Positions 10,187 through 64,000 of a DNA stretch of 64,000 nucleotides are shown here, in pieces. The stretch spans positions 281,542,001-281,606,000 of the forward strand of contig NW_027362772.1 of assembly GCF_046119375.1 (NCBI RefSeq). Reading direction: 5' to 3'. How positions within the stretch are numbered: position 1 is the stretch's first letter; each line of letters begins with the position of its first letter. The DNA is from Phyllobates terribilis (taxonomy: Eukaryota). Under the pieces are notes generated by a model, which saw only the letters and a program-made list of their open reading frames with translations, had not been told where the DNA came from and did no database searches. Both the position numbers and the translations under genes were made by a program.

Positions 10187-10446
10187 GGAATACCATAGTC
10201 GCAAGATATTTTCACATAAATTAAAGGGTATTTCTTTCTCAGCCGTGGTCAGAGGTGGCTGGGATAATGAAAACAGTGTATCACAGTCTTCTCGGTTGTT
10301 TATGTAGTACCCCTCATCTTTGTCTGCTGCATACAGACAGGTATGGCTGAGGTGGGAAACTGCCTTTAATGTAAAATGTGCCAAATCCCTCTACAATTCC
10401 TAGTAGTTATGAGTTAATTAAGTTGCATTTTTTTTTTAATTCCCAG

Positions 10447-11029
10447 ACATCAAATCAAAGAGAGGTGGGATTCTGCAAGGAAACACATGAACAAACTGGA
10501 GAAAGCCATAGACAGTTACTACGAAGAAGTTTATAAGAAGTTCGACGAACAGCTTCATGAAAAATTCCCGGTATTCAGGAAGAACGTTGTCCCTATTCTG
10601 AAGGAGTTTGATGTTGCCTTAGAAGAGCAGCTTGAGAAAATTGTAAAAAAAATAATTCCGGTTGGATCTGATCTCCTCGTTGGAATAAGCCAGCAAGTGG
10701 TCAAGTTCGTTGAAAGTTTGGAAAGTATCGCAGAACATGGTCGCGACAAATTGCGCGAGGAGATAGACAGCCTGCGCGTCAAAGTGCAACCCTACGTGGA
10801 CGATGTGCATGCGGAATACCAGAGGTATCGTACCAATATGCAAGGCGAACTAGAGAAGGATATGAAGGAGCTGAAGCAAGAGGTGGAGAAGAATATGGAG
10901 AAGCTGAAGGAACAGGCTAAGCCTCATCTCGAAAAATTTAAAAGTAAATTTCCTGATGGCAAAGAATTCCAGGAAAAAGTGGAGCAGTTTATTGCGGAGC
11001 TGAAAGAAGCACTTTCCAAAGAAGAGTAA
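10447..11029 (+). CDS. apoa1: APOA1-like exon 4, amphipathic helical repeats; full protein 255 aa
   Basis: Acceptor TTCCCAG|A completes the GA|A codon. HQIKERWDSARKHMNKLE aligns to LKLLDNWDSVTSTFSKLRE; GRDKLREEIDSLR aligns to MRDRARAHVDALR. CDS 43+142+583 = 768 nt. Syntenic position of APOA1, but the sequence is divergent and could be a paralogue. Confidence 0.92.
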
Positions 11030-17582: not shown

Positions 17583-18529
17583 GTACAGTACCTTGCTATG
17601 TGTCCTGGCTGACTGCAACGGCGGCAAATCGGCTGTCCATCCTCAGTGTAGCGGTCGGCGGGCCTCCCTCTGAACGGCGGGATCCTCCTCTGTCGACACC
17701 ACGGGACATCCTCCGGACTGGAAGCCAGCTCGATTGGTCTTGACGGTTCCACCTGCAACGACTGTACGGTCCTGGTTAATGCAGCCACACTCTTTGTTAG
17801 CTCCTGGACCTGATGGTGCAGGTCTGCAGGCTGGGACGGATTTAGGGCCTGTGCATCAGCCCCCATAAGGTCTGCGGGGTAGGGCGCTGCCCCCTGGTGG
17901 TAAGTGATGGCAGGGCGCCGGGAAGCTACAGCGCCACCTGTTGCGGGTTCTCTGAGCACCCGGATGGCCCGATCCTTGAACTGCGCAAAAGTCAAATCGG
18001 ATTTCTGTAGGGCCATGAAGCGCAGCTAAGTCCTGTGGGCGCTGGACAGCAGACCTTCTATGAACTGGTCAGTCAACAGTTTATCAGAGTCCTGCACGCT
18101 ACCAGGGTCAGCTTGTTTGATAGCTCTCAGGGCTTCTTGCAGGTTCAAGGCATAGTCTCTGATACTATCCTGGGCCCGTTGCTTACAGCCATAGAACCGC
18201 ATTTTTATTTCTGCTGAGGTACGGGTATCAAAGGTACTCCGCAGCCGGGTCAGAATGTTCTTTACTGTCCTTTTCTCCTCATCTGACCATGATTTCACTT
18301 CCCGCTGGGCTGCACCGGTGAGCTGCCCCGTTAGAATGCTCACTTTCTGTTCTTCCGTCAGGGGATAAACTTTGAACAAACTGTGCAGTCTTTCCCTAAA
18401 GTCAGTTAAGGTATGGGATTCCCCTGAGTATTGGGGCAGCCAGGCTGCTCCGGGGATGTAGGGCATAGAGAACGGCATCACCGCTGCTGCAGCCCCGCTG
18501 GTTGTAGAAGGCCCCTCCGTGTCCGTCAT
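17558..18529 (-). pseudogene. Gypsy gag (PNMA-like capsid plus CCHC zinc knuckle) with one premature stop
   Basis: ORFs 18026-18529 and 17558-18016 are in one frame, separated by a TAG; CRRCSQPGHIARYC zinc knuckle. Confidence 0.9.
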
Positions 18530-18895
18530 CTTCCTCCCCCCTAGTTAAGCGTGGCCTACCTTCCGACGATCCTCTTCTGTAGGCCGCGGCTCCGCTGGTG
18601 CTGCTCCGGACAAGGACCTTGCGTCGCGTCCTGGTGACGTCAGTGTCGCTCTCTCTCCCTTCCAGGACCTTGCGCAGCGTCGGTGCGTAGGGCGGGGCTT
18701 CAAGTCTCGCGCGCTTTGGACGTCCACGCCCCTCTTCTTCCCTCACGGCGTCCTGATGGCGGGAAAATGGCTGAAGATGGCGGGAGATGGCTGAAAATGG
18801 CGGGAAACGGCTCCGGATGGCGGGAAACCTCCTTTTAAGGTACGTGTACAGTCTTTTTCAGGCACGCAATACCCGTTTGTGGCGGGTTGGTCACA

Positions 18896-18913
18896 ATCCT
18901 GCCGACTACGCCA
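18896..18913 (-). promoter_or_regulatory. Primer-binding site, tRNA-Ser(AGA/TGA type)
   Basis: TGGCGTAGTCGGCAGGAT, 4 nt (GCTT) after the 5' LTR, is complementary to the vertebrate tRNA-Ser 3' end ATCCTGCCGACTACG-CCA (tRNA sequence recalled, not searched). Confidence 0.9.
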
Positions 18914-21857
18914 AAGCTGACTCACCCCCTGGGCCGTGGGGCACTCGGAGCCGGGCAATAGGGCAATGATGGGGGTAGTAGTGGCAACCCGGTCCGTGGC
19001 TCAGGGTGGTCAGACCAGTGGCAGTCTTCTATATGTTTAGCAATGTCCGAATACGTAACCCGTGGATTGCGGTCAGGGAGGACCGCTGCTGCAAGGCAGA
19101 CCGCTGAGGCTGGTGTTGGGGATGCAGCAGGGAATAGTACAACTCCCCACGGGAGGAGTGTAGCCTCAGGGCAGTGTAACAGGATGTTGGGGGTGATGGT
19201 GCAGGCGCAGCAGTAACCACACAGAGTCCAATAATGCAGTCCAGGGTCTTTTACTGCAGAACTTATCACAGACCCACCATGAGTACAGGGTAGGAATGGG
19301 CCTGGGTGTCTGAGGGCATTCGGGTGAGCTCCACTGGCCAGGGTGAGTGGGTAGGCCTACCGTTCTCTCTCTGCCCTTGCTGACTATCTCCCCCTTAAGT
19401 GGTATGATAACCCACGTCCCTGAGCTTGCCGTGTACTACGCCTGTATGGCTTGCGACTCGGGCCTTAGGTACCTGTAGCTTCTCTGTGCTGTACCGGTCC
19501 CTCTTTGTGGCGGAGCCTCCAGGCTTCTTAGGCCAAGGGACCTGAAATCCCTTGCGGGTTGGTTATCTGCTGCAGGGCTTGCAACCCTGACAGCCTCGGA
19601 CCCCAGTGTCCGGTTGTGTAGTCTCTCTCTGTCAGGACCGGCTCTCGTCGCCTCTGTCCCTGGCTTTTCTCTTCCTCCTTTGCCTCCTGGACTCCTCAGC
19701 TGCGGCTGACCTGTCCCTCTCTCCTGGGAACCCTTCTGGATGCTTCAGAAGTGGGTCCTGGTCTCTCTAACCCTGCCCTCAGTACCAGCTTTTATAGGGG
19801 CAGCCTGCTCCCCCTACTGGCCTGGGACAGGAGGTGCTGCATGCAAATGGTCCATGACCAGAGAACCTCCCTCCTGCTCTCAGACACAGCCTTACAAGTT
19901 TGTGGCATCCAGGCCTGGGGCGACACACATGCATAGCCAGGCCCATCATAGTAATCCAAAGTGATCGGCACTCCACTGATTGGAGTGGTAGAACATAGAA
20001 GAGTAGACAATGTGAATTCAAGAAGGTTCGGGCACTCACACAGGTTTTTTCTTATTTCTATTATTCAATAAAACTGGACGTATTTTAATCCATCCAAAGC
20101 GTTCATCAGCAACCTGAAACGCGCCCACTTTTTTTTGAATAAAATAAAAAACCTGTGTAAGTGACGGGACCTTCTTGATTTCATTTTTTGTCTATCATCC
20201 ATCACAAATTCATGACATAACCTGCCATAACTGTATAAAACCCCTTTAAAGGGAGTCTGTCAGCACAAAATGACTGTTCAAAAAAAGCACAGGCTCTCGG
20301 TGCACCATTGACGTTGCCAAACAGTTCGGTGCACCTCCTCACCTATCTCCACCTATCATATATCTCCACCCTCCTCTGGCTCCTGCAAAGTTCTGACTGT
20401 CAATCAGGTAGGAAGAGGGAGGAGATAAATGAAAAATAAGTAGGTGGGAACGGTGCACTGAACTGATCAGCCATGGCAAAAGTGCACCGAGGGTCTTAGC
20501 TTGGTTTGCACAGTTGTTTTTTGATGATAGGCTTCCTTTAAGGCTCATGAACATGGGTGTAGTATGCTCCACACAACATCCATCATCCATAATACGGCAT
20601 CTGGAGCAGTCCATGAACCACCTTGTACCTCAGTACGCCTTCAATTTGGTACAAAACTTTTGTCCTGCTCCATCAGATACTATGTTATGGAGATGTATTA
20701 CTTCCATTATAAGGTGCCAACGTGGAGGCATCATACGGTAGAGCTCAGCTTGCCCATAGCTCCATTCTTCAGATCAGTAGAAACTCTGGGTACAACTGAC
20801 TCGTTTGGGCGCCCATGGCTGTGCCATGTACATGGAGCCTACCATTGGAGCAACCTGTGGAACCGCACAGGGACCCAAGAGATAAGGGGCCACTTCCACC
20901 TTCCATTGTGCATTGTGAGGAGCAATTGGACTGCACAGGGCCCATATATTGTTCTTGCACAGGAGCCTCTTCTATCTGTGTCCACTCCTGCTGTTGCAAA
21001 TGAAAAACAATTGAAAGCCACTGCGCCAGTGTGTTCTGGGGGTCTTGCTTACAGTTTCCATTAATTTTGTGAAGGTGCTGGGCACAGTTGACCATAGGAG
21101 ATATATGAGGGTCAATGGGTTTAACACCATAAGGACCGTTCGTCCAACACTTCTGTACTTTGAGCGGTCTCCTGAGTATGACCAGGATTGGGGAAACCTC
21201 CCGGCCCCTTAATCATTTAATCACTGTGGTCCTTGACATGATCTAAAGGTAATCTCTCCACATGGATCCCTGATGATCTGATTGGAGAATGGGAAATATC
21301 TCTATAGTCAGCTCTGGTGGTTTAAAAAAGGACCCAGATCTGCCCGTTTAGTAAACCTGCCATTAGGATGCACTACTGCTATTTGCACACAACGTCTTTT
21401 CCAGGTGAGTGAACCCACTGAGACTTTCGAGCGAAAACAACTTAAAAAATATCACCGTTTTTTTCATCTGAAGTGTCTATTTTAGGATCTTTTTTATTCA
21501 CTCCTTGAGCTCTTTTTTTTTAACGTTTTTGACTGTCGCCATTTGTTTTAGCACTTCTGCAGTGAAAATAAAAATCCTACACATATTTGGTAGCCACACG
21601 ACTATAAAAATTGGCCATTTTCTTCTGGATGGAAAAATTATGATGTTTAAATGCTTGTGTGAACCCGGCCCTGGGGTCATCTTCCAAATCACATAAAATA
21701 ATAATCTATGTTAGTTACAACCATTCAAAACCCCAGGTGCACAGTACACCTACATTCCAGGCAAAATGAGTGCCGAGCAGTGGAGTAACTAGAGTCTGAT
21801 GGGCCCCGGTGCAAGATTTGGACTAGGGCTCCCCATCCTGAATAAATTATATATATA

Positions 21858-23484
21858 CAGTACAGACCAAAAGTTTGGACACACCTTCTCATTTAAAGAT
21901 TTTTCTGTATTTTCATGACTATGAAAACTGTACATTCACACTGAAGGCATCAAAACTATGAATTAACACATGTGGAATTATATACTTAACAAAAAAGTGT
22001 GAAACAACTGAAAATATGTCTTATATTCTAGGTTCTTCAAAGTAGCCACCTTTTGCTTTGATGACTGCTTTGCACACTCTTGGCATTCTCTTGATGAGCT
22101 TCAAGAGGTAGTCACCGGAAATAGTTTTCACTTCACAGGTGTGCCTTGTCAGGTTTAATAAGTGGGATTACTTGCCTTATAAATGGGGTTGGGACCATCA
22201 GTTGTGTTGTGCAGAAGTCAGGTGGATACACAGCTGATAGTCCTACTGAATAGACTGTTAGAATTTGTATTATGGCAAGAAAAAAGCAGCTAAGTAAAGA
22301 AAAACGAGTGGCCATCATTGCCTTAAGAAATGAACGTCAGTCAGTCCGAAAGATTGGGAAAACTTTGAAAGTGTCCCCAAGTGCAGTTGCAAAAACCATC
22401 AAGCGCTACAAAAAAACTGGCTCACATGAGGACCGCCCCAGGAAAGGAAGACCAAGAGTCACCTCTGCTTCTGAGGATAAGTTTATCCGAGTCACCAGCC
22501 TCAGAAATTGCAGGTTAACAGCAGCTCAGATTAGAGACCAGGTCAATGCCACACAGAGTTATAGCAGCAGACACATCTCTACAACAACTGTTAAGCGGAG
22601 ACTTTGTGCAGCAGGCCTTCATGGTAAAATAGCTGCTAGGAAACCACTGCTAAGGACAGGCAACATGCAGAAGAGACTTGTTTGGGCTAAAGAACACAAG
22701 GAATGGACATTAGACCAGTGGAAATCTGTGCTTTGGTCTGATGAGTCCAAATTTGAGATCTTTGGTTCCAACCACCGTGTCTTTGTGCGACGCAGAAAAG
22801 GTGAACGGATGGACTCTACATGCTTGGTTCCCACCGTGAAGCATGGAGGAGGAGGTGTGATGGTGTGGGGGGGCTTTGCTGGTGACACTGATTGGGATTT
22901 ATTCAAAATTGAAGGCATACTGAACCAGCATGGCTACCACAGCATCTTGCAGCGGCATGCTATTCCATCTGCTTTGCGTTTAGTTGGACCATCATATATT
23001 TTTCAACAGGACAATGAACCCAAACACACCTCCAGGCTGTGTAAGGGCTATTCGACCAAGAAGAGGAGTGATGGGGTGCTACGCCAGATGACCTGGCCTC
23101 CACAGTCACCAGACCTGAACCCAATCAAGATGATTTGGGGTGAGCTGGACCGCAGAGTGAAGGCAAAAGGGCCAACAAGTGCTAAGCATCTCTGGGAACT
23201 CCTTCAAGATTGTTGGAAGACCATTTTCATTGACTACCTCTTGAAGCTCATCAAGAGAATGCCAAGAGTGTGCAAAGCAGTTATCAAAGCAAAAGGTGGC
23301 TACTTTGTAGAACCTAGAATATAAGACATATTTTCAGTTGTTTCACACTTTTTTGTTAAGTATATAATTCCATATGTGTTAATTCATAGTTTTGATGCCT
23401 TCAGTGTGAATGTACAATTTTCAAAGTCGTGAAAATACAGAAAAATCTTTAAATGAGAAGGTGTGTCCAAACTTTTGGTCTGTA

Positions 23485-23487
<3 letters not shown>
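21858..23487 (+). mobile_element. Full-length Tc1/mariner (DD34E) transposon, 1630 bp
   Basis: TA TSD on both sides; TIRs begin CAGTACAGACCAAAAGTTTGGACAC and run about 255 bp; single transposase ORF. Confidence 0.97.
22272..23324 (+). CDS. Tc1-like transposase, 350 aa, open frame but catalytic Glu replaced by Lys
   Basis: Paired-like HTH, GRPR motif, WSDE, QQDN, then SPDLNPIK in place of SPDLNPIE (codon AAG at 23127-23129). Confidence 0.92.
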   Translation: MARKKQLSKEKRVAIIALRNERQSVRKIGKTLKVSPSAVAKTIKRYKKTGSHEDRPRKGRPRVTSASEDKFIRVTSLRNCRLTAAQIRDQVNATQSYSSRHISTTTVKRRLCAAGLHGKIAARKPLLRTGNMQKRLVWAKEHKEWTLDQWKSVLWSDESKFEIFGSNHRVFVRRRKGERMDSTCLVPTVKHGGGGVMVWGGFAGDTDWDLFKIEGILNQHGYHSILQRHAIPSALRLVGPSYIFQQDNEPKHTSRLCKGYSTKKRSDGVLRQMTWPPQSPDLNPIKMIWGELDRRVKAKGPTSAKHLWELLQDCWKTIFIDYLLKLIKRMPRVCKAVIKAKGGYFVEPRI

Positions 23488-23532
<45 letters not shown>

Positions 23533-27172: not shown

Positions 27173-28180
27173 TGACTCGCCCAGGGGGATATGGGGGACT
27201 CGGTACCCGGGCCTTTACCTTCTTGGGATGTCACGGCAGTCGGCTCCCGGGCCCGTACCCTGGGGTCACTCTTTAAAAGGGGTTTGTTACTTGAAGGGAT
27301 GAATAACAGTTTTGTCTCGTGACGCTACCTGTGGCTCCTGGTAATGGGTACCAGCGCTGCTGCAGACCTCTGGGGGTGATGGAATGGCAGCTGGGATGCT
27401 TCTGCCCCGCACAGGTGAAGCGGGCCCCCGGGGCAGGGTTGATGTAAGGGATTCAGGTGAGAGGTGGCCCGGTCGGGTCAGGGGGAATGACGGACATGCA
27501 CACAGGGGATTCGCTTCAGTACCTTTACTGGTGTAATGGCAGGTATGGTCCAGGGTACCTAGTAGGAAGGGTGCACTTCTGGACTCTCCCCAGTGAGCGG
27601 GTAGTAGGCCTCCTGGTCCGTTTTTTCCTCTCTCTAAAGCTCATGGCCAGCCTGGAACTAGGCCTAGCTTCTGTACGGTTTCACTCTCTCACCTGTCTGC
27701 TTGGTAATAGAACTTTTCTCTGGCTACCACTATCCCTGGGCGCTGGGGCCTTCGCGGTTCCTAGTTCTGTAAAATGATGGTAGCTTCAGGTTGACCAGGG
27801 GTCTGGAATCCTCATGGTATGCCGGTTGTCCCTACTGGGTGTAGAGGACCCTGGAGGCGCGGACCCGGTGTCCGGTTTGTGTCCTGGGGTGAGCTTTAAA
27901 TGCTCCTCTGCCCCCTAACCTCCTCTCTCCTTGCCTTGGCCACACTCGGGGCCCTCAGCACAGCAGCTCAACAGGTGCTGCTTCTTCACTGGTCTAAAGT
28001 GCCAGCACACTCTGCCTACCTAACTCCACCCTCCAGTATATATATCCCTAACAGGGCTCCCTCTGGTGGTATGAGGTGGAAGGGTGGAGGTATCTGTTAT
28101 GTAATGAGGGCCACTTGGGAAGAGGTCCGTCCATGCACCCTTTTGGGCTCTGTGGTACCTGTGTGTAGCAGGGTGCCACA
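27173..28180 (-). mobile_element. Solo LTR (1008 bp) of the same Gypsy superfamily
   Basis: TGACTCGCCC...GGGTGCCACA termini; perfect TSD GTAT (27169-27172 and 28181-28184). Confidence 0.9.
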
Positions 28181-38346: not shown

Positions 38347-39043
38347 CTGGGATCAGAACAGAAAAAGAAAAGTTAAAGCAGCAGAGTTATGGTAAGAAGT
38401 TCATTAAAGGTTTCATGGGTTAAGAAAGAACATTGGTAAAGATGCAAAAAGTTTCCTGTTGGTACCTCCCTTACTTCAAAATGCACAACTCCTTGGCTGG
38501 TAGTTATTGACATAGTTTGAGTAACTTTCATAAAAAAAAACTTTTCATGTGCCATAGGGATAAGTCAAGTTTTGATCGATGGGATTCTGAGAACTGAGAC
38601 CCCTACTGAAGACGTGCTCCATAGAAAGCACCCTCATCACCGTGACCTCCACCGATGAAAACTTCTGACATGACTTATCACACATTAAAAGTTTTTTCAA
38701 ATGGGTTGTACAGGACTAGAAAAACATGGTTGATGTCCTAGAGAAACAGCAACATCTGTCTATAGATGTCTGATATTGCAAGCTAGTCCTGTAGGAATGG
38801 ATGGGGCTGGGTGGCAATATGTGACAAAGGCTGGTTTCAGTGCTTTCGGAAGAAGGTAGTCATGTTTTTCTAATCCTGGCCAACCCATTTTTAGGGGTTG
38901 TCCTTCTTAATAGATTGAAAACCTACCCACAGGAATGGGGATAAATTTATAATCACTAAGGGTTTGACCACCGGCACCTTCACCGATCCAGAGAATCGGG
39001 GCCCCAAAGTCTCCTGAGTGAATAGATTAGTAGTGAACAAACA

Positions 39044-41471
39044 AATAAAGTTGCACTCTGTAGCGCTATTGCATGTAAACATGAAATATATGAATTTTGA
39101 ATTGCATTACCGCTCTAGATAATAAGAAAAAAATGTAGATGTTTAGCACATAATTTGGCCAATTCATGCATGCCCAGAAGCCAACAAGAAGGCGATCTCC
39201 TGTTGCTGGGAACCTATGGTACACTCACATCTGCGTATGAAAAGTAGCTGAGATTCTCAGTCAGAATATGTGGCGAGTGTCATGCGAGTGTCATGCATTT
39301 TTTTTCTCACCTAGTCTCACCTAGCATCCATATGCCATGTGTATGCAATCCGTATGCAATGTATTTTTAACATCTGATTTTACATACAGTAATTCTCTAT
39401 GTCATTTCAAGCAAGTTTTCTAACTAATAAAACAATATTATATACAGCTATAGATAGATTATAATAAGAAATATGTCAATGAGATATATAATTAGTGCTT
39501 TGCGTGTGTATTTTACTGTACATATATTTAGCTAATAATTAAATAAATTAAAGAAAAAAATGATGTGGGGTCCCCTTTATTATTCTTAACCAGCTGAGGG
39601 AAAACCAATAGCTGGGGGCTGATGTTTATAGTCTGGGAAGGGGGTAATAAACATGGAGCTTCTCAGATTATTAATATCAGCTCACATCTGTCTACTTAGC
39701 CTTTATCGGTTATTAACAAGGGGTGACCCCCCCCCACAAAAATGCCGTGGGGTCACCCCTACTTTTAACAACCAGCAAAGGCTGGGCAGACAGCTGCGAG
39801 CTGATATTAATAGCCTAGGAAGAGGCCCCTCCCAGACTAAGAACATCAGCCCTCAGTCACCCCAGAAATGGCGCATCCATTAGATGCGCCAGTTCTGACG
39901 CTTAGCCTCAGCTCTTCCCACCTTCCCTGGAGCAGTGGCAAGTGGGGTAATACTATTGGGGTTGATATCAGTTTTGTAATATCAGCTGACATCAAACCCA
40001 GGGGTTAGTAATGGACAGGAGTCTATAAGACATCTCCATTACTAACCCTGTCAATTTAAGAAAAAAAAACACACAGAGCAAAGTCCTTTATTGGAAAAAA
40101 AAAACACTCCCCAACCCTCTTTTACTCATTTATTAATATCCAAGTAAAAATAAAAAAGCAAAGAAATCCTTACCTGTCCGCTGATAATCCATATGTCCCT
40201 CGACGAGGCCAACTAAGCTACTTCTGGATGCTTCGCTGAGCGGTGACATAAAATGCCTGAGTGCTGAGGGCTGACGTCTGAAAGGTGACCGGAGTTCATA
40301 GCCGATGAACTCCGGTCACCTCACTGACGTCACCGCTCGCTGCGTGAGAAAGTTGTCACGTAGGTGAGGATTTCTTTGCTATTTTATTTTTATTTTGATA
40401 TTAATAAGTGGGTAAAATAGGGATGGGGAGTGTTTTTTTTTCAAATAAAGGACTTTGCTCTGTGTGTTTTTTTTTACTTAAACTGATGGGGTTAATAATG
40501 AGGGTGCCTTATAAAGGCCTCTCCATTAGTAACCCCTGGGTTTGATGTCAGCTGACATTAAAAAGCTGACATCAACCCCAACACTATTATCTTACTTGCC
40601 ACCGCATCTGGTCAAGTGGGACGAGCCGAGGCTAAGAGCCAGAATTGGCACATTTAATGGATGCACCATTTCTGGGGCAGCCGAAGGCTGATGATATTAG
40701 TCTGGGAGGGGGCCAATATTCATGGCCCCTTCCTAGCCTATTAAGATCAGTCTGCAGCTGTCTGCCTAGCCTTTGCTGGTAATTAAAAATAGGGGTAACC
40801 CCACATCATTTTTTGGGGGGGATCAAACCTTGTTAATAACCAGTAAAGGCTATATATACAGCTGTGAGCTGATATTAATAGTCTGGAAAGCTCCATGTTT
40901 ATTACCCCTATTCCCAGACTATAAACATCAGCCCCAGCTGTCGGCTTTCCTTCAGCTGGTTAAGAATAGTAAGGGGGACCCTATGCCATTTTTTTCTTTA
41001 ATTTATTTAATTAATAGCTAAATACATGTACAGTAAACTACACACACTGCTCTAATTATATATCTCACTGACACATTTCTATTTATCTATTTATCTATCT
41101 ATCTATTCTATTCTGACAGTTCACGGCTGTGATTTTACTGTACTTGGCTGATGAAATGTCAGCTTTCCTATGAGATGGTGCGTAAAAATCGCATGGCACA
41201 TGCATGGTCTGTGTGCAGTTTGATTCCTTATATGAATTGCAGCAGGATCCTACCTACCCATAAATGCAGGCTTCAGCCTAGGAGAGGATTCACATTAGAT
41301 AGGTCCCCAGCAAAAGGAGATCGCCTTGTTGTTGGCTGCTTGGCATACATGAATTGGCCAAATTATGTGCTAAGTATCTCCATTTTTTCTTATTATATAC
41401 AGCAGTAATGCAATTCAAGTTTCATATATTTCATGTTTATATGCTATAGCGCTACAGAATGCAACTTTATT
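39044..41471. mobile_element. Nested foldback (long inverted repeat) element in APOC3 intron 2
   Basis: Outer arms 39044-39217 and 41299-41471 are reverse complements; several hundred bp of inner arms (about 39540-40170 vs 40370-41010) are also inverted. Confidence 0.75.
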
Positions 41472-42431
41472 TATTTTGGCAGTCTTTTTGTTATTTATTG
41501 GTTAGTAGTGCCCATGTGTGACCACCACTCCATTCCCATTTCATCGCCCACTTCACAACTGTTGACTTTGGACCCTTGTTCTCGAGATCGGTGATCGGAC
41601 CACCAATGGTCATACATTTCTCACCTATGCTGTCAATAGGTGATGAATGTATATGGTAGAACAACCCCTTTAAATATTGGGTCCAGAAGTTCTGCTCATC
41701 CACGGTCAATAGTTCCTCCAGTTTGGCATACTAAGGGTGGGTTCCTGCAGAGCGAAAATGCTTTTCTGCATGTTTTCTGGATGTGTCCACACCAAAAAAT
41801 GCAATAGCCATCTGTACTATTTGTGGTGTATTTGTTGCATGTTTTTATGTTTGTGGGTGCGCAGAAATTTTTTAGTGCATAGGAAGGAAGACGGATCAGA
41901 AATATCTAGAAAATTCATCTCAACACCATTACTACTAAGTCAGCTGCAATGTTCTTCCCTCCAGACCTCAGACATGAATCAACCTCTGGATTGCAAAACT
42001 TTGTGTACAACATTAGGAAAGTCAGATGAGAGTTCATGAGTCACAGTCCGACAAGAGGAAGTCAGCAAAGGGTTATTAGGAGATGCAAGAACATGGAGCA
42101 CTGGCCGTGACCTAAATCATCAGCTTAGCGGGTACCTGAACTTTTACATGATTTCTTGATAGGTTGTAGCCTCTGTAAAGTGATGTTGATCGATGGCGGT
42201 CTGGGTTCTTGTATCCAAACCCATCACTCAAAACACTCAGCTCATGCTTGAGGGCGCTTCAAGGGTTGTACGGACCCTCGGAGGTGGTACACCACACCCT
42301 AAGCACTTCACAACTATCCACATGGATCAACAATACTTTATATTAGCTTTAACTTATCAAAAAAACATATAAAGGTTGAGTTACCCTCAAAACTTTTCTT
42401 TAAGTTGCAATATAGTGGAAGAAGTTCTCAC

Positions 42432-51815: not shown

Positions 51816-52616
51816 GTAAGTGAGCAGCGCCGAAGCTTGCCTAATCCCTACGAATTTAGATGACTACAGTATAAGGAACAATATTTAATGGGTTGACCAA
51901 CTAGAAGAGCAAAGATCTTCAGATGAATTTGACATCCAAATACATGCAACTTTTTCTATTAACTTTTATTATCCAAGTTCCATCATTCTCCAGCTCTTAG
52001 CAATGGTCCTGGGTCCCTGCTGCTCCATTTCTACGTTGAGTTTGAAACAGGAGAGAGTTTTCTGTGTTGGCATGTGATGTAATTGGGGTGGCTGGCTACC
52101 ATTTCAGTAGCTAATTCAACCTTCTTCTCATTCATCAGCCGTGACGGAGAAGGCGAGCGGCTGGTTTTTATATATTAGTAATGAGCAGTCAGCCATCCAG
52201 TCCCCTTCATGCACATGTGCCAACTCAGGAAGCTCTCCTCTTCTTGAACCCCATGTGGACGTAAAGTTGCTGAGACCCTTGACCGGTGTAGATAATGGGA
52301 CTTTAGAAGATATATTATTAATATGTTGCAAACATTTCAATTTTAAACACATTTAAATATCTTTTTTTTTTACTTAGACAACCCCTTTAAACGGGTTGTC
52401 TCGTGAAGACCACTTGTTTAACAATAGAAGAAGATCCATGGATCAACCATTGGTCTAGGTTCAGAAATCCCTGGCAATTGTTTATTATTACCAAGGGAAT
52501 GTGTATCTGGCCGTACATGTAGTCCCACATGTCAGCTCTCCTTATGGAAAAAAACTTGATATCACTACTAATGTTGACTGCTTTTGTAGTAACTAAGTCC
52601 TTTTCTTTCTTGCCAG

Positions 52617-53544
52617 TGTTCTGATTGAAGAAAACTTGAAAAGCGTCAATCTGTACGCTGGAGAACTTCAGCAACAGATCATACCCTTTGCAAAACAGAT
52701 ACATGAGCAACTAACTCAAGATTCGGAAAAACTGAGGGAGCAAATAAGACAGGAACTGGAAAAGCTGAAGGTCAAGTTGTCTCCTTATGCAGATGAGGTG
52801 CACAAGCAACTAAGCAGAAATGTAGAGGAGCTTCAGATAAAACTGGCACCATATGCAGAACAGCTACGGACACAGCTGGATAAAAACACACAGATCGTAA
52901 GTGAGCAGCTAAAGTCTGTAACGAAGGATCTGGAAGCCAAGATTAGAGAAAACGCTGACCGTGTTCAGGAATCACTGACCCCATATTCTCAAGAGCTCAA
53001 GGTTATGATAGATGACAATGTGGAACAGCTGAGAAAGCAACTGAAGCCCATCACTGGAAAAGTGAAAGAAAATATTGACCAACAACTTCAAGAACTATAT
53101 AAAAGCCTAACACCCTACGCCGAAGACGTGCAAGATGAGCTGCGTAAGCAGATTCAGAACATGGAGTTTCAGATGAGGAAAAATGTTGAGCAAATGGAGA
53201 CCAAAATGTTGGAGTTCACCGGGCAGCTGAGAGAGCAACTCTATCCCTACGCCAATGAGCTCAGGAGCAAACTGAATGGAGATATGGCAAACGTCAAGCA
53301 GATGTTGGAGCCGTACCTTACCGAGATGAACCAGAAGATGGACCAGAAGGTAGTAGAGTTCAAAGACACAATGACCCCTTTTGTTGATGACCTCAACAAA
53401 GCCCTTGTACAAAGAGTGGAGGACATGAAACAGAAGCTGGGAGAATACAACGTGAGTGTACAGGACCAAGTGGAGTATATGGAGAAAGATGTCCGAGACA
53501 AGATCCGAGATTTCATCAACAAAGGCGTTTCCACCGAAAATTAG
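52617..53544 (+). CDS. apoa4: APOA4 last exon, 22-mer amphipathic repeats; full protein 367 aa
   Basis: Acceptor TTCTTGCCAG|T. NLYAGELQQQIIPFAKQIHEQLTQDSEKLREQI matches human [33 protein letters not shown]. CDS 49+127+928 = 1104 nt. Confidence 0.97.
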
Positions 53545-55766: not shown

Positions 55767-56782
55767 TTAAGGGCTTAAAGTCAATGTCCATCTATGAAAA
55801 TGTGGCGCCCCTGAGGGTTCAGTCGCCACAGAGGTACTGCGCCTCACCCAGAGGTGTGGTGTCTCCTTTTCTCAGGTAAGGAGGGAGTGCTGCCCGGAAC
55901 CCCAACACCCGCATTCAACACTACACTACTCCAGGCCGGCAGGAAGGGCAAGATGCACTGTGTTTCCTGCTGAGCCCTGTCCCTGGCTGGAGTGGGGGGA
56001 ACCAAAGGTAGGGGGAACCAGTAGTGGGTGTGGGTGGAGGAAGTAGAGTAGGGGAGCACCATCATAGAAGGAGGTATATAAAGGGAAGCCATCTTAGGGT
56101 GGCAGATCAGTCAGAACAGTAGGAGAAGTTAGTCAGTCAGGGAGCAGAGTCTCGTTAGGAGCTCTGCTCCACAAGTGGGGCCTAGTGATAGAGGCCCAGG
56201 AGGGGAGCAGAGGAGGAAGGCTCCGTTCTATTGATGGGATCCCAGGGGGTACGGCGAGTGCAGGACTGCCCCCCTTACGCCCCGAATCTGTCCTAGTCAC
56301 CGTGAGGGTCAAGCAGGTCTGGGAACTCCAAGTGCCCAGAGGGACTTCAGAGCACCCGAGCGGGACTGTGAGTGGGGAAGCGCAGGGCAGGAGGGAGAAG
56401 ACCCAGCGTGAAGACGGTCTAGTGAGGAACATAAGAAAGCGGGGTTCCGTCAGGTGCTCCTGACCTACCTGAGGAAGAGCTGAACCCCCGATCTTGGGGA
56501 CACAGCGCGACGCGGGAGGCTGGCACCTTCGCAGTGGACCAGTGGAGCGTACATAAGAACTGTGAGTAAAGACTCGGATGACTGCACCGCACTGCCTCCG
56601 TCCATTATTTTAGCTGCGCCATCTCTCCCTCTGCACTACAAGTCCCAGCATCACCACCCACCAAACTCCACACTGCCCCGGGGGCCCGCTCCACCTGTGG
56701 CGAGCAGAAACACCTCAGCTGCCATCCCATCACCCCCCGGAGGTCTGCAGCAGCGCTGGTAAACCTTACCGGGTACCACAGG

Positions 56783-57804
56783 TATCACCCTGGCCTGGAT
56801 GCCACAAATATAATAAAGCTGTGTCTGAGAGCAAGGGGGAGGTCCTCTGGTCAAGGACCATTAGCATGCAGCACCTCCTGTCCCAGGCCAGTAGGGGGAG
56901 CAGGCTGCCCCTATAAAAGCTGGAGCTGGGGGCAGGGTTGGGGAGAACTGGACAACCTGTCTCTGGATAGAGAAGTGTCCCAGAGCAGGGACAGACAGTT
57001 GTGTTGCAGCCTAAGAGGACGTGTGGCAGTAGGAGAGCCACGAGCCAGGGACAAGAGGCGAAGTGCGCCTGTCCTGGCAGACGAAGAGACTAATTTATCA
57101 GACTTTGGTGTCTGAGGCTGTGAGGATTCCACGTCCTACAGCAGATAACCAGTCCGCAGGGGACTGTATGTTCCTTGGCCTAAGAAGCCCGGAGGCTCCG
57201 CCACAGCAGAAGGGACCAGCAAAGCCGTACCAGGCCGGGAGTAGAAAGGGACCCAAGTTGCAAGCCATACGGGCGAGAGGACACGGTGAGCTCGGGAACG
57301 TGGGCTGTTACGCTACGAGGAGGGAAGTAGCCAGAAGGAGCACAGAGAGCACGGTAGGCCTACACCCTCACCCTGACCAGGGCCAGCCTCCCACTTGCTC
57401 TCAGACATCCAGGCCCCCTCCTAGCCGGGCCAGTTTCTGGATCATATTACCTGTTCTAATAAAGACCCTGAACTGTTTAAAGGGCCTCCGTTTCCTGGCT
57501 ATCGCGGTCGGAATCATCCCCTCCATCATCCATTATATATTCTGCCCTGGGGCCATACTCCTCCCGTGGGGAGTTGAACTATTCAGTGCTGCACATTTAT
57601 ATCAGCCCCAGCGGTCTGCACTGCAGCAGTGGTTAGCCCTGACCGCAATCCACGGGTGGCGTAGTCGGACATTACCTACAGCACATAGCAGACTACCACT
57701 GGTCTGACCACCTTGAGCCACGGAACCGGGTCGCCACTACTACTCCCAGCATTGCCCTGAAGTCCGGTTCCGAGTGCCCCACGGCCCAGGGGGCGAGTCA
57801 GCTT
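56783..57804 (+). mobile_element. Foreign Gypsy LTR (family of 11466-19927) plus GCTT spacer, embedded in the 5' LTR
   Basis: Homologous to the reverse complement of 11466-12475; ends GGGGGCGAGTCA-GCTT; flanked by a 20-bp duplication (56763-56782 and 57805-57824). Confidence 0.85.
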
Positions 57805-57993
57805 ACCTTACCAGGTACCACAGGTGGCATCACGAACTATTTATTTTATTTTTCCTATCCAAGTTACAAATCCCCCTTTTTAGTTGACCGCCCTGGGCCA
57901 CGGACCAGGCAGCCACTGTGACATATCCCCCCCCACCAGCATCCATAGGCCCGGCTGTCGAATACCCCATTGCCCTGGGGGCGCGTCAACTTC

Positions 57994-58011
57994 TGGCGTC
58001 ACGAACAGGAT
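57994..58011 (+). promoter_or_regulatory. Primer-binding site, tRNA-Ser(CGA) type
   Basis: TGGCGTCACGAACAGGAT, 5 nt after the LTR, is complementary to the 3' end ATCCTGTTCGTGACG-CCA of a vertebrate tRNA-Ser(CGA) isodecoder (recalled, not searched). Confidence 0.85.
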
Positions 58012-58386
58012 TTCGTGCCCGTTGCAACTAACAGGATTCCGTGCCCGTTGCCACCGGGTACTGTGCGCCTTAAAGAACTGTGTTATGTTACTGAATGTGG
58101 CGCCCGCCCCAGAAGAACGGGCGCCATTATGTGCGTGGTCAAAGACAACAATATGGAGCCTCCCATCATGGGCCGGGTCCCAGAATGGCGCCAAAAGCAC
58201 ACCCTGCCGATTGCAACAGTGACTGTCCGCATAGATGTGTCCATCAAGGCAGAGAGGACGTCACAGGGAGTGACCGACAGCAGGCTGCCATGGGACCGCC
58301 CGCGAAAGGGGAGGGGAGGAAGAGAGAAGGAATGGAGACAGGGTGTGGTCTTAACAAGTCTACACAGACCGCACCCGGCAGCCAGC

Positions 58387-59499
58387 ATGGACGGAAGCAA
58401 GGATCCAGCCTCCGCCTCTGGCCTGCAGGAACAAGCGACCCCCCTCACCCTGGAGGGGGAATCAAGTAAACTGTCCCCGGAGGATACGGAATTCCTCCAA
58501 ATAGAGATCCTGGAGCTGAGCCAGCAGGTGGAACGGGCCCAGCCAGCAGCGGTCACCAGGTGGAAGAGCGAGCTGCTGGAGAAGTTAGCAGCTCGGCGGC
58601 GGCCAGCACCGGATATTATCAGCGGCACCCCAGCCCCGGCGGAGCCTGATGAACACCAGGAGGCCGTGTGCAGCACAGGAGCAGGTAGGAAGAGTTCCCC
58701 CATCCAGGGCGCTGCAAGCACCGACCTGCTCCGGGGCCTCCTGCAGCAGCAGCCCCTGTACCCGGGCGCGTGCACCCTAGACCAGCTGCTAAGCCCGGAA
58801 CCTCCACCCCCGGGCGCTGAATCCGAAAACCTCCTGCTCGGCTCCCTCCCGGAACCGCCACCTCCGGCACCCGGGTGGGTGTACGGCGCCTTCCTTTGAT
58901 TGGTCCGCCAGATTTGGGGACCAGCAGCCGTACCCGCTACTCCCGACACCAGCGCCCCCGGTTGCCTGACCCAGCGGAGAAGAATTTAGTTGGGACAACC
59001 GGGGGGGGGACCTGATGGGGTTCCCGCAGGAGACCCAAGCCGAGGCCCTGCAGAGAAAGGAGTTCTGCAGGCGGGAGCTCCAAAAGCTGGAGAAGGAGCG
59101 GCACACTCGGTGGGCGCGTTGTGAGCAGTTAAAGGCCCGGAACAAGGCCGCAAAAGCTCAAGCCCGGCAGGTGGAATCTGCCCACCCCAGCCCCGTGAAG
59201 AAGGACTAGTAGTAAAGTTCGACTTGAAGGCTGGGTGGTGCTTTATCCGAAATCCCAATTTCTGCAGGGATATTTTCGTGAACCGGCGGGATGTTGAGCC
59301 CGAGCTGGAACAGGGCCATCCCAACCGGAACCTGTACCCCGGCAACCGTGTCACCTACACTCGACACCACGGGGAACGCGGGTGGTATGCCCTCCAACTG
59401 TGCCGCGTGATTGAGGACACGCCCCCGCAGAACATGGCTGATGACCCGGCTGGGTCCAGCAAAAATCAAAAGTACCCCAGGCGGGAACCCCACTACTAG
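58387..59499 (+). pseudogene. Disrupted internal ORF: helical/Pro-rich N-terminus, coiled-coil segment and C-terminal cold-shock domain (about 59197-59400)
   Basis: Frame open from 59125 gives EEGLVVKFDLKAGWCFIRNPNFCRDIFVNRRDVE...RNLYPGNRVTYTRHHGERGWYALQL, matching the CSD RNP-1, RNP-2 and C-terminal strands. Pieces lie in different frames (58387-58899, 59015-59209, 59125-59499). Confidence 0.7.
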
Positions 59500-62309
59500 T
59501 ACAGTAGGTGGGACTAAACTGTATATAGTCACCCGTAAGGGTACAGAAAATTGAAGTTGTTTTAAGTGTGTTTTAATAATTACCCGTCAGGGTATACAGA
59601 CTTCAGGCTGAGGACTGTAAGCAGCCAAAGACTGACTTTGTATATAGTTTTGCACTTCTTAAAGTGCTCTCTATTGGTTTTATAAGTGCAACCAAGTGAC
59701 CTCAGAAAAAAAACCCGTTTGGCGTGGCGGAAGACGTGGTCCAGCACCAGGATCACCTATGCCCTGCAGCCACGCCCAGGGCCTACGTTGAGGGTTTGCG
59801 GATGGGTCCCTCATGCTGCTACTTTTGCACCTGTTTGAAAAAGAAAATGGACACCCGGTTATAGAATGTGCTGTAACCTGTTGCAGAATGTTATTAAAAG
59901 TGTTTGTGATGTTATGATAACCTGTAACTTTAAAGAGAAGTGCCTCCCTTAAAGGGAAGAAATGTTTTGTTACAATCTTATATGCGAATGCATTCTAAAA
60001 ACTGCATGTCTAATTTACCGTGTTTTGCTCAGTTCCAGCCCGCGGACGTGCTGTGTTTTGCAAGTGTGGAGTGTGGCGCCCCTGAGGGTTCAGTCGCCAC
60101 AGAGGTACTGCACCTCACCCAGAGGTGTGGTATCTCCTTCTCTCAGGTAAGGAGGGAGTACTGCCTGGGACCCCAACACCCGCATTCAACACTACACTGC
60201 TCCAGGCCGGCAGGAAGGGCAAGATGCAATGTGTTTCCTGCTGAGCCCTGTCCCTGGCTGGAGTGGGGGGAACCAAAGGTAGGGGGAACCAGTAGTGGGT
60301 GTGGGTGGAGGATGTAGAGTAGGGGAGCACCATTGTAGGAGGTATATAAAGGGAAGCCATCTTAGGGTGGCAGATCAGTCAGAACAGTAGGAGAAGTTAG
60401 TCAGTCAGGGAGCAGAGTCTCGTTAGGAGCTCTGCTCCACAAGTGGGGCCTAGTGATAGAGGCCCAGGAGGGGCGCAGAGGAGGAAGGCTCCGTTTTATT
60501 GAAGGGATCCCAGGGGGTACGGCGAGTGCAGGACGGCACCCGTATGCCCCGAATCTGTCAGAAGACAGAGGGATCAGGCTGCAAGAAGGGGACTGGCCCC
60601 TGGACCAGCCGTGTTACTCCAGGTCTCGGCTGGAAAAACCGGAGGCTTCTGGCTTTCATAGTGCAGTTGCCAAAGCCTCATCCTAGTCACCGTGAGGGTC
60701 AAGCAGGTCCGGGAACTCCAAGTGCCCAGAGGGACTTCAGAGCACCTGAGCGGGACTGTGAGTGGGGAAGAGCAGGGCAGGAGGGAAAAGACCCAGCGTG
60801 AAGACGGTCTAGTGAGGAACATAAGAAAGCGGGGTTCTGTCAGGTGCTCCTGACCTACCTGAGGAAGAGCTGAACCCCCGATCTGGTGGACGCAGCGCGA
60901 CACGGGAGGCTGGCTTCCGTGCAGTGTACCAGTGGAGCGTACATGAGAACTGTGAGTAAAGACTAGGATGACTGCACCGCACTGCCTCCGTCCATTATTT
61001 CAGCTGCGCCATCTCTCCCTCTGCACTACAAGTCCCAGCATCACCACCCACCAAACTCCACACTGCCCCGGGGGCCCACTCTATCTGTGGGGAGCAGAAA
61101 CACCTCAGCTGCCATCCCATCACCCCCCGGAGTTGTGCAGCAGCGCTGGTAAACCTTACCAGGTACCACAGGTGGCGTCACAAACTATTTATTTTATTTT
61201 TCCTATCCAAGTTACAAATCCCCATTTTTAGTTGACCGCCCTGGGCCACGGACCGGGCCAGCCACTGTGACATATCCCCCCCCCACCAGCATCCATAGGC
61301 CCTGCTGCCGAGTACCCCATTGCCCTGGGGGCGCGTCAAAAACAGTCATACTGTTTATGTTTAGAATTATTCTACATGGAAAAAGTTATCTTGTAAGTAT
61401 ATTGCTTTCATGGAGTTTGCATTTCTGGCACAGGGACTGGAAGTCAGTGAATGGGGGTCAGAGGACCTTCATTCTCTCGATTGATGATGGTCTTGGAGGG
61501 GGTTTATTCTTAGATTGACCTACCCCATTAAAGAGCATCTGTCACCATCATTATCTATAATAAAAACATATAATACATATATTTTTCTCAATACGTCTGT
61601 GATTTTCTTCTAGGAGCGCAACTTTTAATAATTTTATATACATAGTTTAACACAATGGACGCTCATTCATTACGGGTCTGGATCTCTTTAAATACAGGAT
61701 CAAGCAACTGATTAGTCGATTGTGTCACCTGATATACTCTGCTGAATCTGATTGGTCAGTGCCCTGACTTTAGAGACTCCTTCCACACAAGCCAAGATTT
61801 CAAAGTGAAAAATGTCACAAAATACAAATACCCCCCCAAACTCAGTGTACAGACCCCCAGAAAGCAGCGAGTTATCCCCTCCTCCCTATCCTATCAATAG
61901 GGGATAATTTCACATTGGTACCTATGAGGAAGAGAAATTTAATCTCAAAGTTCAACAGCTCCACTTTCTTATCAAAACTGTAAAGCAATGAAATAGGTTC
62001 CCACTGGTGTGGAGAGACTAATGGACCAGGCAATGCTCCCTGGGAAAAAAAATATGCAAATTAACCCACATCCACATTTAATTTATTTTACAATTCCCTA
62101 CTATTCTTCCTATACAGCTAATCCCTATCTGTTATTTTTTACTCCCTGTTCCAGTGATGTTTCAATGGAGGGGAGTCACAAATGAGGCATCACAGGAGGA
62201 TGACCCTGTATTCACTTCTCTGCAGCATCTATCACCCCTCCTGAAACAGGACGTCATCAGGACCACCTGTTTCAGTAGCAATGATGGAAATGTGATAGCA
62301 ATTTTTGTT

Positions 62310-62897
62310 ACTGTCGCAGCATTTCTGTCCCCGCCGCAACATCTTCAGTCGCCGCCATCACAGTCCCTGCTTCTGTCCTTGCCGCTGCATCTTCAGTCAC
62401 CCTTCCATAGTCCCTGCTTCTGTCCCTGCCGCTGCATCTTCAGTCGCCGCCATCACAGTTCCTGCTTCTGTCCCTGCCGCTGCATCTTCAGTCGTCGCTT
62501 GCACAGTCACTGCTTCTGTCCCCATCGCTGCATCTTTAGTCGCTGCTTCCACAGTCCCTGCTTCTGTCCCCACCACTGAATCTTCAGTCGCTGCTTCCAC
62601 AGTTCCTGCTTCTGTCCCCACCACTGCATGTTCAGTCGCCGCTTCCACAGTCCCTGCTTCTGTCCCCACCACTGCCCTGTTCAGTCCCGCTTCCACAGTC
62701 CCTGCTTCTGTCCCCACTGCTGCATCTTCAGTCGCCGCTTCCACAGTCCCTGCTTCTGTCCCCACCACTGCATCTTCAGTCGCCGCTTCCACAGTCACCG
62801 CTTCTGTCCCCACCGCTGCATCTTCAGTTGTCACTTCCACAGTAACTGCTTCTGTCCCCACTGCATCTTCAGTCGCCGCTTCTACAGTCACTGCTTC
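62310..62897. repeat. 48-bp minisatellite (ACAGTCCCTGCTTCTGTCCCCACCACTGCATCTTCAGTCGCTGCTTCC)n, about 12 copies
   Basis: Visible tandem array; gives the spurious TVPASVPTTASSVAAS repeat ORFs; cut by the LTR at 62898. Confidence 0.92.
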
Positions 62898-64000
62898 TGA
62901 CTCGCCCCCTGGGCCGTGGGGCACTCGGATCCGGGCAATAGGGGGAACGATGGGAGTAGTAGTGGCAACCCGGTTCCGTGGCTCAGGGTGGTCAGGCCAA
63001 TGGTAGTCTGCTACGTTCTGCTGATAATGTCCGACTACGCCACCCGTGGATTGCGGTTATTAGGAACCGCCGCTGCATGCAGACCGCTGGGGCTGATGAG
63101 GTGTGCAGCTAGGGTAGTGTGACTCCCCACGGGAAGAGTGCGGCCCCAGGGCAGTATAATGGATGGTGGGAGTGATGGTAGTGAGAATCCCAGTGCTGAT
63201 AGTGCTGGAGGAGCAAGGAGCACACAGACAACAAGTTGCAGTCCAGGGTCTTTACTGAAACAGGTAAACTGACCCATAAACAGTCCCAGCTAGGAGGGGA
63301 CCTGGATGTCTGAGAGCAACGGGGAAATTGGCCCTGGTCAGGGTGAGGGTGTAGGCCTACCGTGCTTTCTGCGCTCCTTCTGGCTATCTCCTCGTTATAG
63401 GGTAACAGCCCACGTTTCCAAGCTTTCCGTGTATTCTCGCCTGTATGGCCTGCGACGTGGGTTCCTTTCTGCTCCCAGCCTTGTACGGCTTTACTGGTCC
63501 CTTCGGTTGTGGCCGGGCCTCCAGGCTTCTTAGGCCAAGGAATGTACAGTCCCTTGTGGACTGGTTCTCTGCTGGGGGATGTGGAATCCTTCCAGCCTCA
63601 GACACCAAAGTCTGGTAAAGCTAAGTCTTTCTCTGCCAAGACAGGCTCTCTTCGCCTCTTGTCTCTGGCTTGTGGCTCTCTCCTACTGCCACACTTCCTC
63701 TTAGGTGCAATCAACTTTCTGTCCCTGCTCCACTCTGGGACACGTCTCAGTGCTGAGACAGGCTTTCCAGTTCTCTCTAACCCTGTCCCCAGTACCAGCT
63801 TTTATAGGGGCAGCCAGCTCCCCCTACTGGCCTGAGACAGGAGGCATTGCATGCTAATGTTCCCCTGACCAGAGAACCTCCCCCTTGCTCTCAGACACAG
63901 CTTTATTACACTTGTGGCATCCAGGTAGGGTGACACATTCCCCCCTAGTGAAATTTAGTACTCCGGGACTAAACAATAAACAAAGACAATATGCACAACA
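62898..64000 (-). mobile_element. 3' LTR (62898-63937), PPT and start of the internal region of another Gypsy element that runs out of the window
   Basis: TGACTCGCCCC...GGTGACACA, followed by TTCCCCCCTAGT (PPT on -) and sequence similar to 12476-12540. Confidence 0.9.

Follow-up and report, generated by a model that had tools for sequence, protein, structure and literature searches.

Two kinds of described element come close to the one reported here. Cold-shock domains (CSDs) are already known within long terminal repeat (LTR) elements: 46 endogenous retroviruses (ERVs) of birds encode one, the domain having been captured several times, and the authors suggest an adaptive role (PMC12287698). 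Frog LTR elements that bear an open reading frame (ORF) but no pol are likewise on record, in the form of Xenopus 1A11 and Xretpos; the ORF of 1A11 is described as Gag-like, and the accessible text makes no mention of a CSD that we could find (PMC4585706). Here we describe an element at 55801-61338 of a 64,000-nucleotide stretch of the Phyllobates terribilis genome (contig NW_027362772.1 of assembly GCF_046119375.1, positions 281,542,001 to 281,606,000; hereafter ‘the window’), a decayed copy of a non-autonomous LTR retroelement that shares its CSD with the former and its ORF-bearing, pol-less state with the latter.

The bird elements are true retroviruses with near-canonical CSDs at varying positions (Pfam E values of 1e-14 to 1e-26 in 32 of 45 table rows; PMC12287698), whereas the CSD of the frog element is strongly diverged, and the single gene of this Gypsy-related element is built around it. 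The bird ERVs are a precedent for the capture of a CSD by an LTR element, and we rejected any claim of novelty for such capture as such; what appears to be new is the combination of a pol-less, single-ORF LTR element with a CSD, each half of which was known already. A retrotransposon-encoded CSD or Y-box family like that of the element was not found in print, in a search that left most subscription journals, Repbase and Dfam outside its reach, such that the family may be catalogued without comment.

That the locus is an LTR element is confirmed. A first-pass annotation, made from the sequence itself, had recognised paired LTRs, a 4-bp target-site duplication (TSD) and an 18-nt primer-binding site (PBS), and all three hold up: self-comparison aligns the LTRs in three blocks of 95.5, 94.9 and 95.2% identity, AAAA (a low-complexity sequence) flanks the element on the left and right, and an 18-nt site starting TGG stands where a PBS is expected (Table 1). 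The termini read TGT...TCA, with short terminal inverted repeats, and 4-bp TSDs (AAAA, CATG, ATGG and GTAT) accompany all four insertions checked in the window, whether complete elements or solo LTRs.

The same annotation saw no gag or pol in the 2.08-kb interior (57989-60071), and neither do we. A Pfam scan of five ORFs of the element gives a meaningful match only in the frame 59125-59499, to a CSD, with none to gag or pol; five gag/pol pieces of a Gypsy element elsewhere in the window (11466-19927, minus strand) yield no same-strand tblastn match to the interior better than E=0.09, the one opposite-strand match (E=0.002) falling within proline-rich sequence. CCHC motifs and capsid Pfam domains are absent from the ORFs of the element and from the relatives scanned.

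The cold-shock domain and its reading frame

Profile comparisons and predicted structures lead us to regard the CSD as real and of oligonucleotide/oligosaccharide-binding (OB) fold, as the first-pass annotation had expected of the Pfam search and structure prediction it proposed. PF00313 matches 59125-59499 at E=2.4e-4 (21.3 bits, under the curated cut-off of 27), and a profile built from nine short canonical Csp proteins recovers the segment at E=2.2e-8, the next among 1347 stop-to-stop segments of the window standing at E=1.7. The predicted model of 59191-59460 is a five-stranded antiparallel barrel (mean predicted local distance difference test score, pLDDT, 86.8), derived from an alignment of 21 rows of which 8 are canonical Csp; the relative P0002, introduced below and modelled without canonical Csp rows, yields the same barrel. 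Among the matches listed by Foldseek at E up to 0.001 there are only cold-shock-domain proteins, and a second structure aligner places the model close to both E. coli CspA (Z 13.1, root-mean-square deviation 1.4, 68 residues aligned) and YB-1 (Z 12.0, 2.0, 70 aligned). When the full-length P0002 model was compared widely with known folds, all of the 50 matches listed covered residues 217-303 only, so that the N-terminal part of the protein was barely probed.

The ribonucleoprotein motifs RNP-1, G-[WYF]-G-F-I, and RNP-2, [DE]-x-F-V, are retained in most rows of the alignment; in the window copy C replaces the second G of RNP-1, and the His of RNP-2 is missing. A PDB sequence search with the CSD segment of the window by itself returns nothing under E=0.05 (YB-1 appears at 0.16), the best ESM Atlas scores, 0.89 (a Csp cluster) and 0.85, serve as leads only and include no frog cluster, and matches in a viral structure library are to phage and giant-virus Csp proteins only, with no retroelement protein among them.

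The domain forms the end of a longer gene, one of three features (the others being an asymmetry of the LTRs and a poor polypurine tract; see below) that go beyond the first-pass annotation. The interior once held a single ORF of ~370 codons, running from an ATG at 58387 to the stop that closes segment 3; this follows from the Phyllobates protein P0044, residues 1-325 of which are colinear with all three of the segments into which the frame is now divided (frames 1, 2 and 1; combined E=6e-47), and whose first Met coincides with that ATG. Segment 1 aligns with residues 1-162 of P0044 (64/167 identical; shuffle z 15.8 and 15.5) and segment 2 with residues 163-257 (40/102 identical), the latter also matching P0001, P0002, P0004 and P0005 (shuffle z 4.8-14.8); in segment 3 the CSD is identical to that of P0044 at 36 of 59 positions. 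The copy in the window is dead: it had been read as frameshifted, and we find two frameshifts, near 58890 and near 59195 (segment 2 losing its frame near 59190-59205), to which we add an in-frame stop at 58967.

GC content at the first, second and third codon positions of the CSD frame is 0.63, 0.42 and 0.69. The model of P0002 provides a predicted layout for the whole protein, with a helix at 32-62, a disordered linker, a long helix at 163-218, the barrel at 223-293 and a disordered tail; 148 of its 382 residues have pLDDT <50, on a shallow alignment of 15 rows, and E, R and K make up 36-47% of the long helix in five relatives. Two further candidate frames were rejected. The in-frame extension upstream, 58135-58386, has no match in 11 relatives (z <2), and a 300-codon frame on the opposite strand, 58083-58985, has no Pfam match and is best seen as a by-product of the GC-rich coding sequence that it faces.

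Relatives, conservation and Y-box affinity

A first search of 50 candidates gave one relative, the first 140 residues of a P. terribilis model annotated R3HCC1 (56/92 identical). From a full scan of 1.84 billion representatives came 42 matches, eight of which we class by inspection as single-CSD relatives (P0002, P0004, P0005, P0006, P0007, P0022, P0027 and P0042), the others being 33 multi-CSD proteins and one repeat artefact (P0003, ranked second and removed). With 41 of the 42 matches scanned, five of these eight lie above the Pfam CSD cut-off, two lie below it and one has no match; P0001 also falls short. A profile search of 8000 scored candidates yielded six matches, three of them already in the query, and one of 388 candidates yielded 14, comprising two already in the query, two new relatives and ten canonical Csp.

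The five named relatives come from four poison-frog species: P. terribilis (two), Anomaloglossus baeobatrachus, Ranitomeya variabilis and R. imitator; two different relatives within one species share 66% identity in the CSD. In three of the five, the gene model runs together with that of an unrelated neighbour (R3H; PF04827/PF13359, which we take to be a Harbinger-type transposase; and PF02854, presumably MIF4G), as expected if the insertions are dispersed, and none, among proteins of 201-2000 aa and only 8000 scored candidates, has a gag or pol domain. These comparisons support the view that the protein of the element belongs to a multi-species family and is not a one-off. P0001, P0044 and P0045 are public frog gene models that join the ORF of the element to unrelated genes, and their annotations are probably chimeric. 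Five relatives from assembled reads (P0027, P0042, P0046, P0047 and P0049) group apart as a second subfamily, with domains 25-42% identical to those of frog type; these are diverged single-CSD proteins, nearer YB-1 by score, with a conserved tail motif of their own.

The first-pass annotation had laid down beforehand that its reading required the CSD to be better conserved than its flanks, and this is what we observe: against P0044 the domain is 61% identical (36/59), as opposed to 46% for the charged helix (28/61), 44% for the linker (36/82) and 39% for the N-terminal helix (28/71). Against P0002, P0004, P0005 and P0007 the CSD is 51-59% identical, with N-terminal parts that do not rise above shuffles (z <3), and CSD identity is 45-66% among most frog-type relatives. 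Overall, the domain of the element and its relatives is 50-64% identical. We take the stronger conservation of the domain as an indication that it has been under purifying selection.

‘Y-box-like’, the term originally applied to the domain, survives in part. In its favour, YBX1 (47.2 bits) and YBX2 (45.3) come first among the 40 PDB matches of a family profile, ahead of the best bacterial Csp (40.1), of CSDE1 (23.9) and of LIN28B (22.6), and P0027 aligns with zebrafish YB-1 without a gap over 70 residues (35.7 bits; next family 28.1). Against it, CSD identity to YB-1 is 22-25%, the equivalents of YB-1 W65 and H87 are each found in none of 10 aligned rows, and P0004 places bacterial Csp first (24.5 vs 21.6). 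Structure searches tie bacterial and Y-box domains, and a tree of 38 CSDs (rows of profile score >25 spanning 50 positions or more, with P0049 added and no YBX rows) has few supported forks, does not unite the frog-type rows in one clade and is uninformative on origin. On balance the sequence comparisons make a Y-box ancestry of the CSD likely; the protein of the element is itself not a member of the Y-box family.

W65, F74, F85 and H87 are among the residues of the YB-1 binding surface, and the CSDs of human and zebrafish YB-1 are identical (PMC7498358). An identity of 22-25% to a domain thus invariant from human to zebrafish excludes a recent retrocopy. Across the 10 aligned rows, Y72 is aromatic in 10, F74 in nine and F85 in 10, and at least one new aromatic appears on strand beta5 in all nine of the rows that reach it. 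The element has in common with YBX1 and YBX2 (FRGY2) the CSD fold, a long beta3-beta4 loop, the aromatics at Y72/F74/F85 and the best profile match, but differs from them in its low identity, the loss of W65 and H87 and the new beta5 aromatic pair; moreover, its protein carries a long charged helix in front of the domain and no long basic/acidic C-terminal domain behind it.

Element anatomy, a related Gypsy and the surrounding window

The features of the element are collected in Table 1. Kimura two-parameter (K2P) distances between its LTRs are 0.038, 0.053 and 0.039 (over 488, 493 and 184 sites). The two LTRs of the Gypsy at 11466-19927 are only 0.022 apart, which makes the element the older insertion of the two. 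Its LTRs are asymmetric, in that ~120 nt of the 3' LTR are missing from the 5' LTR, and in that a 1.02-kb LTR of a second family (56781-57800) sits inside the latter. This nested LTR shares 75.7% identity with the Gypsy LTR and 81.8% with an LTR at 62898-63937; it is bordered by a 21-nt duplication (56763-56783 and 57805-57825) with no 4-bp TSD, and ends in the 4-nt linker by which LTR and PBS are separated in the gag-pol Gypsy. Duplication and retained linker together make it look like an integrase-independent capture of an unprocessed cDNA end, as far as a single case can suggest. An internal PBS-like motif directly adjoins the nested LTR plus duplication (56781-57825). The PBS of the element presumably matches the 3' end of tRNA-Ser; directly behind the PBS, a short tandem duplication (58012-58050) copies the 3' half of the PBS and the next 15 nt. 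The polypurine tract is poor, being only partly purine, unlike that of the Gypsy, which is clean (at 12476).

Table 1. Features of the element and its flanks (window coordinates)
Feature	Position	Strand	Remarks
Left TSD, AAAA	55797..55800		
5' LTR	55801..57988	+	~1145 nt of own sequence plus nested LTR; TATA box 56075, AGTAAA 56565
Nested single LTR of second family, with 4-nt LTR-PBS linker	56781..57804	+	
PBS, 18 nt	57994..58011	+	starts TGG, 5 nt downstream of 5' LTR
ORF segment 1	58387..58896	+	strong-context ATG, then N-terminal helix and linker rich in proline; frame breaks off near 58885-58895
ORF segment 2, other frame	58865..59206	+	W-x-DLxGF motif, long E/R/K-rich helix
ORF segment 3	59191..59499	+	CSD, strands ~59194-59406, short tail, stop 59497-59499
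3' untranslated region (3'UTR) block in common with 3'UTR of gag-pol Gypsy (12595-12745, minus)	59705..59859	+	~150 nt, candidate cis signal
Polypurine-tract position, degenerate	60062..60071	+	two T interrupt purine run
3' LTR	60072..61338	+	1267 nt
Right TSD, AAAA	61339..61342		

The Gypsy at 11466-19927 is full-length but broken (LTRs 97.6% identical; TSD CATG), and Pfam identifies in it a PNMA-type gag (E=1.2e-5), zinc knuckle, protease, reverse transcriptase (RT), RNase H and integrase, all in pieces; no CSD is found in it. PNMA genes have been assigned to the Barthez lineage as their progenitor (PMC3670739), and we label this neighbour ‘Barthez-type’ from its PNMA Pfam gag match alone, not from an RT tree. 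A solo LTR of another family (14590-15456, TSD ATGG) lies within its pol.

With this Barthez-type Ty3/Gypsy (Metaviridae) the element has in common TGT...TCA termini with CCCC/GGGG, a 4-bp TSD, an internal PBS-like motif in the LTR, a PBS, presumably of tRNA-Ser type, a few nt past the LTR, and the 3'UTR block; unlike it, the element has no gag, protease, RT, RNase H or integrase, its sole ORF being that of the CSD, and differs in LTR body and PBS. The block comprises three colinear matches (20/24, 43/53 and 15/15; best E=1e-9) and scores 64, the best of 200 shuffles reaching 35; separate folds of element and Gypsy both contain an 8-bp stem (59721-59728/59769-59776), in which one C-to-U change preserves the pair. 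As judged from these alignments the block links the element to PNMA-gag (Barthez-type) Gypsy, a connection that is also new. LTR bodies and 5' leaders of the two do not align, and the differences in PBS and LTR make the Gypsy a relative of the element and probably not its actual helper. Rfam returns no match in the whole window at curated thresholds and two chance-level matches over the element at E up to 1.

The element begins ~2.3 kb past the second of two exons of the apolipoprotein A1/A4/E family (10418-11029, Pfam Apolipoprotein E=2.7e-16; 52597-53544, E=7.9e-68), which mark a host gene cluster receiving LTR insertions, many of them within the window. Further LTRs with the same terminal motifs are a solo LTR at 27173-28180 (minus; TSD GTAT), a partial LTR at 1-794 (plus) adjoining a 27-bp array (796-2390), and a 3' LTR at 62898-64000 (minus) with a clean polypurine tract, adjoining a 48-bp array (62323-62899). 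Within the LTRs of these families, ~140-170 nt before the LTR 3' end, the opening 11-14 nt of the family's own PBS occur a second time (at 655, 11606, 14732, 27325, 57657, 57826, 61174 and 63042), a motif that could play a role in strand transfer or as a tRNA decoy. The window also holds a Tc1/mariner element (21848-23497; 282-nt inverted repeats, 96%) with an open 356-codon transposase frame, in which the third catalytic position is K where E is usual, and a 2.4-kb imperfect palindrome at 39039-41476 (arms 82-90% complementary), probably a foldback or miniature inverted-repeat transposable element (MITE)-like element.

What the gene may do for the element

The reading we favour, whose chances we would put at about even, is that the locus is a decayed member of a frog Ty3/Gypsy family that is non-autonomous, that either arose from a PNMA-gag (Barthez-type) lineage or lives as its parasite, and whose CSD protein binds the RNA of its own element. 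Under such a scheme the LTR would drive one transcript whilst a gag-pol helper would provide particle, RT and integrase; the ~370-residue protein would bind single-stranded RNA through its CSD, with preference for that of the element, and oligomerise or dock through its helices; and the bound RNA might thereby gain in stability, be opened up for primer annealing, or reach helper particles before its competitors do. If the protein prefers the RNA of its own element, and so acts in cis, selection could maintain the gene even though the element can move without one, and relatives in several poison frogs suggest that such elements retain the gene for their own benefit.

Several observations weigh against this proposal. 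The main gap concerns the relatives, which are known as protein sequences and may lie outside LTRs; the window itself holds one copy of the element; and the segment-wise protein identities from which we argue for selection are a proxy, not a ratio of non-synonymous to synonymous substitution rates (dN/dS). With W65 and H87 lost, RNA binding may be weaker than, or different from, that of YB-1. The shared 3'UTR block folds no better than shuffles (z 0.3, from two sequences only). Finally, the Gypsy LTR matches that of the element only over its last 106 nt (71%), its PBS is a different one of tRNA-Ser type, and no helper sharing the LTR or PBS of the element is present within the 64-kb window.

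Deletion derivatives of LTR elements are common, and the leading alternative, though an unlikely one, is that the CSD gene was an accessory ORF of an autonomous Gypsy, from which the element descends by internal deletion of gag-pol, selection having acted in the parent. The 3'UTR homology with the gag-pol Gypsy would fit such a descent just as the general frequency of these derivatives does, but that Gypsy has no CSD, all five named relatives (within the size range and candidate number given above) are free of gag and pol domains, and the ORF stands directly behind the PBS leader, in the position of gag.

Less probable again is action in trans, by which the protein would antagonise host control to the benefit of element and helper alike, competing, in oocytes, with the masking of mRNA by Y-box proteins or with silencing by small RNAs. 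Such a role would draw on the sequence affinity to YBX, on an altered binding surface over an intact fold, as might suit a decoy, and on the high expression of Gypsy elements in poison-frog ova: Oophaga pumilio has ~1 Gb of Gypsy, highly expressed in ova (PMC6278860, the accessible text of which mentions neither ‘cold’ nor ‘non-autonomous’). It would also have to account for the missing basic/acidic C-terminal tail of Y-box proteins, and a benefit shared in trans should be hard to maintain on a non-autonomous element.

We think it distinctly improbable that the relatives represent a frog host gene family, or a passively carried retrocopy, with a domain of no use to the element. Their unseen context and the pseudogene state of the window copy leave room for this, as do the near-canonical CSDs held at variable positions by bird ERVs (PMC12287698); a retrocopy of recent origin is, however, excluded by the divergence from YB-1, the ORF of the element is colinear over its whole length and has no intron, and the CSD appears selectively conserved among most frog-type relatives. 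Least probable of all, and very much so, is a degenerate, still particle-forming Gag with a CSD in place of its zinc-knuckle nucleocapsid: gag position, a helical N-terminal part followed by a nucleic-acid-binding module, and the pol-less Xenopus 1A11 with its Gag-like ORF (PMC4585706) would suit it, but the family profile does not match the neighbouring PNMA-type Gag (probability 0.13%, E=0.44), no relative scanned has a capsid Pfam match, and the P0002 model, with its many low-confidence residues, shows two isolated helices.

Taking the cis-acting protein as our preferred reading, we tentatively entertain a wider one, possible but with the chances somewhat against it: that of an old, multi-species lineage of satellite-like frog LTR elements which have lost gag and pol, while purifying selection has preserved in them one evolved RNA-binding protein, descended from a Y-box CSD, by which they route their own RNA into helper Gypsy particles or escape the masking of mRNA in the oocyte. 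The second subfamily would be a more distant part of this lineage.

As a rule, a non-autonomous LTR element either retains gag or decays until nothing in it is coding. A lineage in which a single RNA-binding gene other than gag is maintained would imply a step of the LTR life cycle at which competition is strong enough to pay for that gene, candidates being the selection of RNA for packaging, its stability, or its translation in the oocyte. Together with the independent captures in bird ERVs, this points to convergent use of the CSD by LTR elements. Insertions of this kind account for chimeric frog gene models, such as the R3HCC1 model that starts with a CSD, and offer a testable handle on the large Gypsy expansion in poison-frog genomes. 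If the satellite-like lineage is real, it would be a protein-coding parasite of a retrotransposon, comparable to the satellite viruses.

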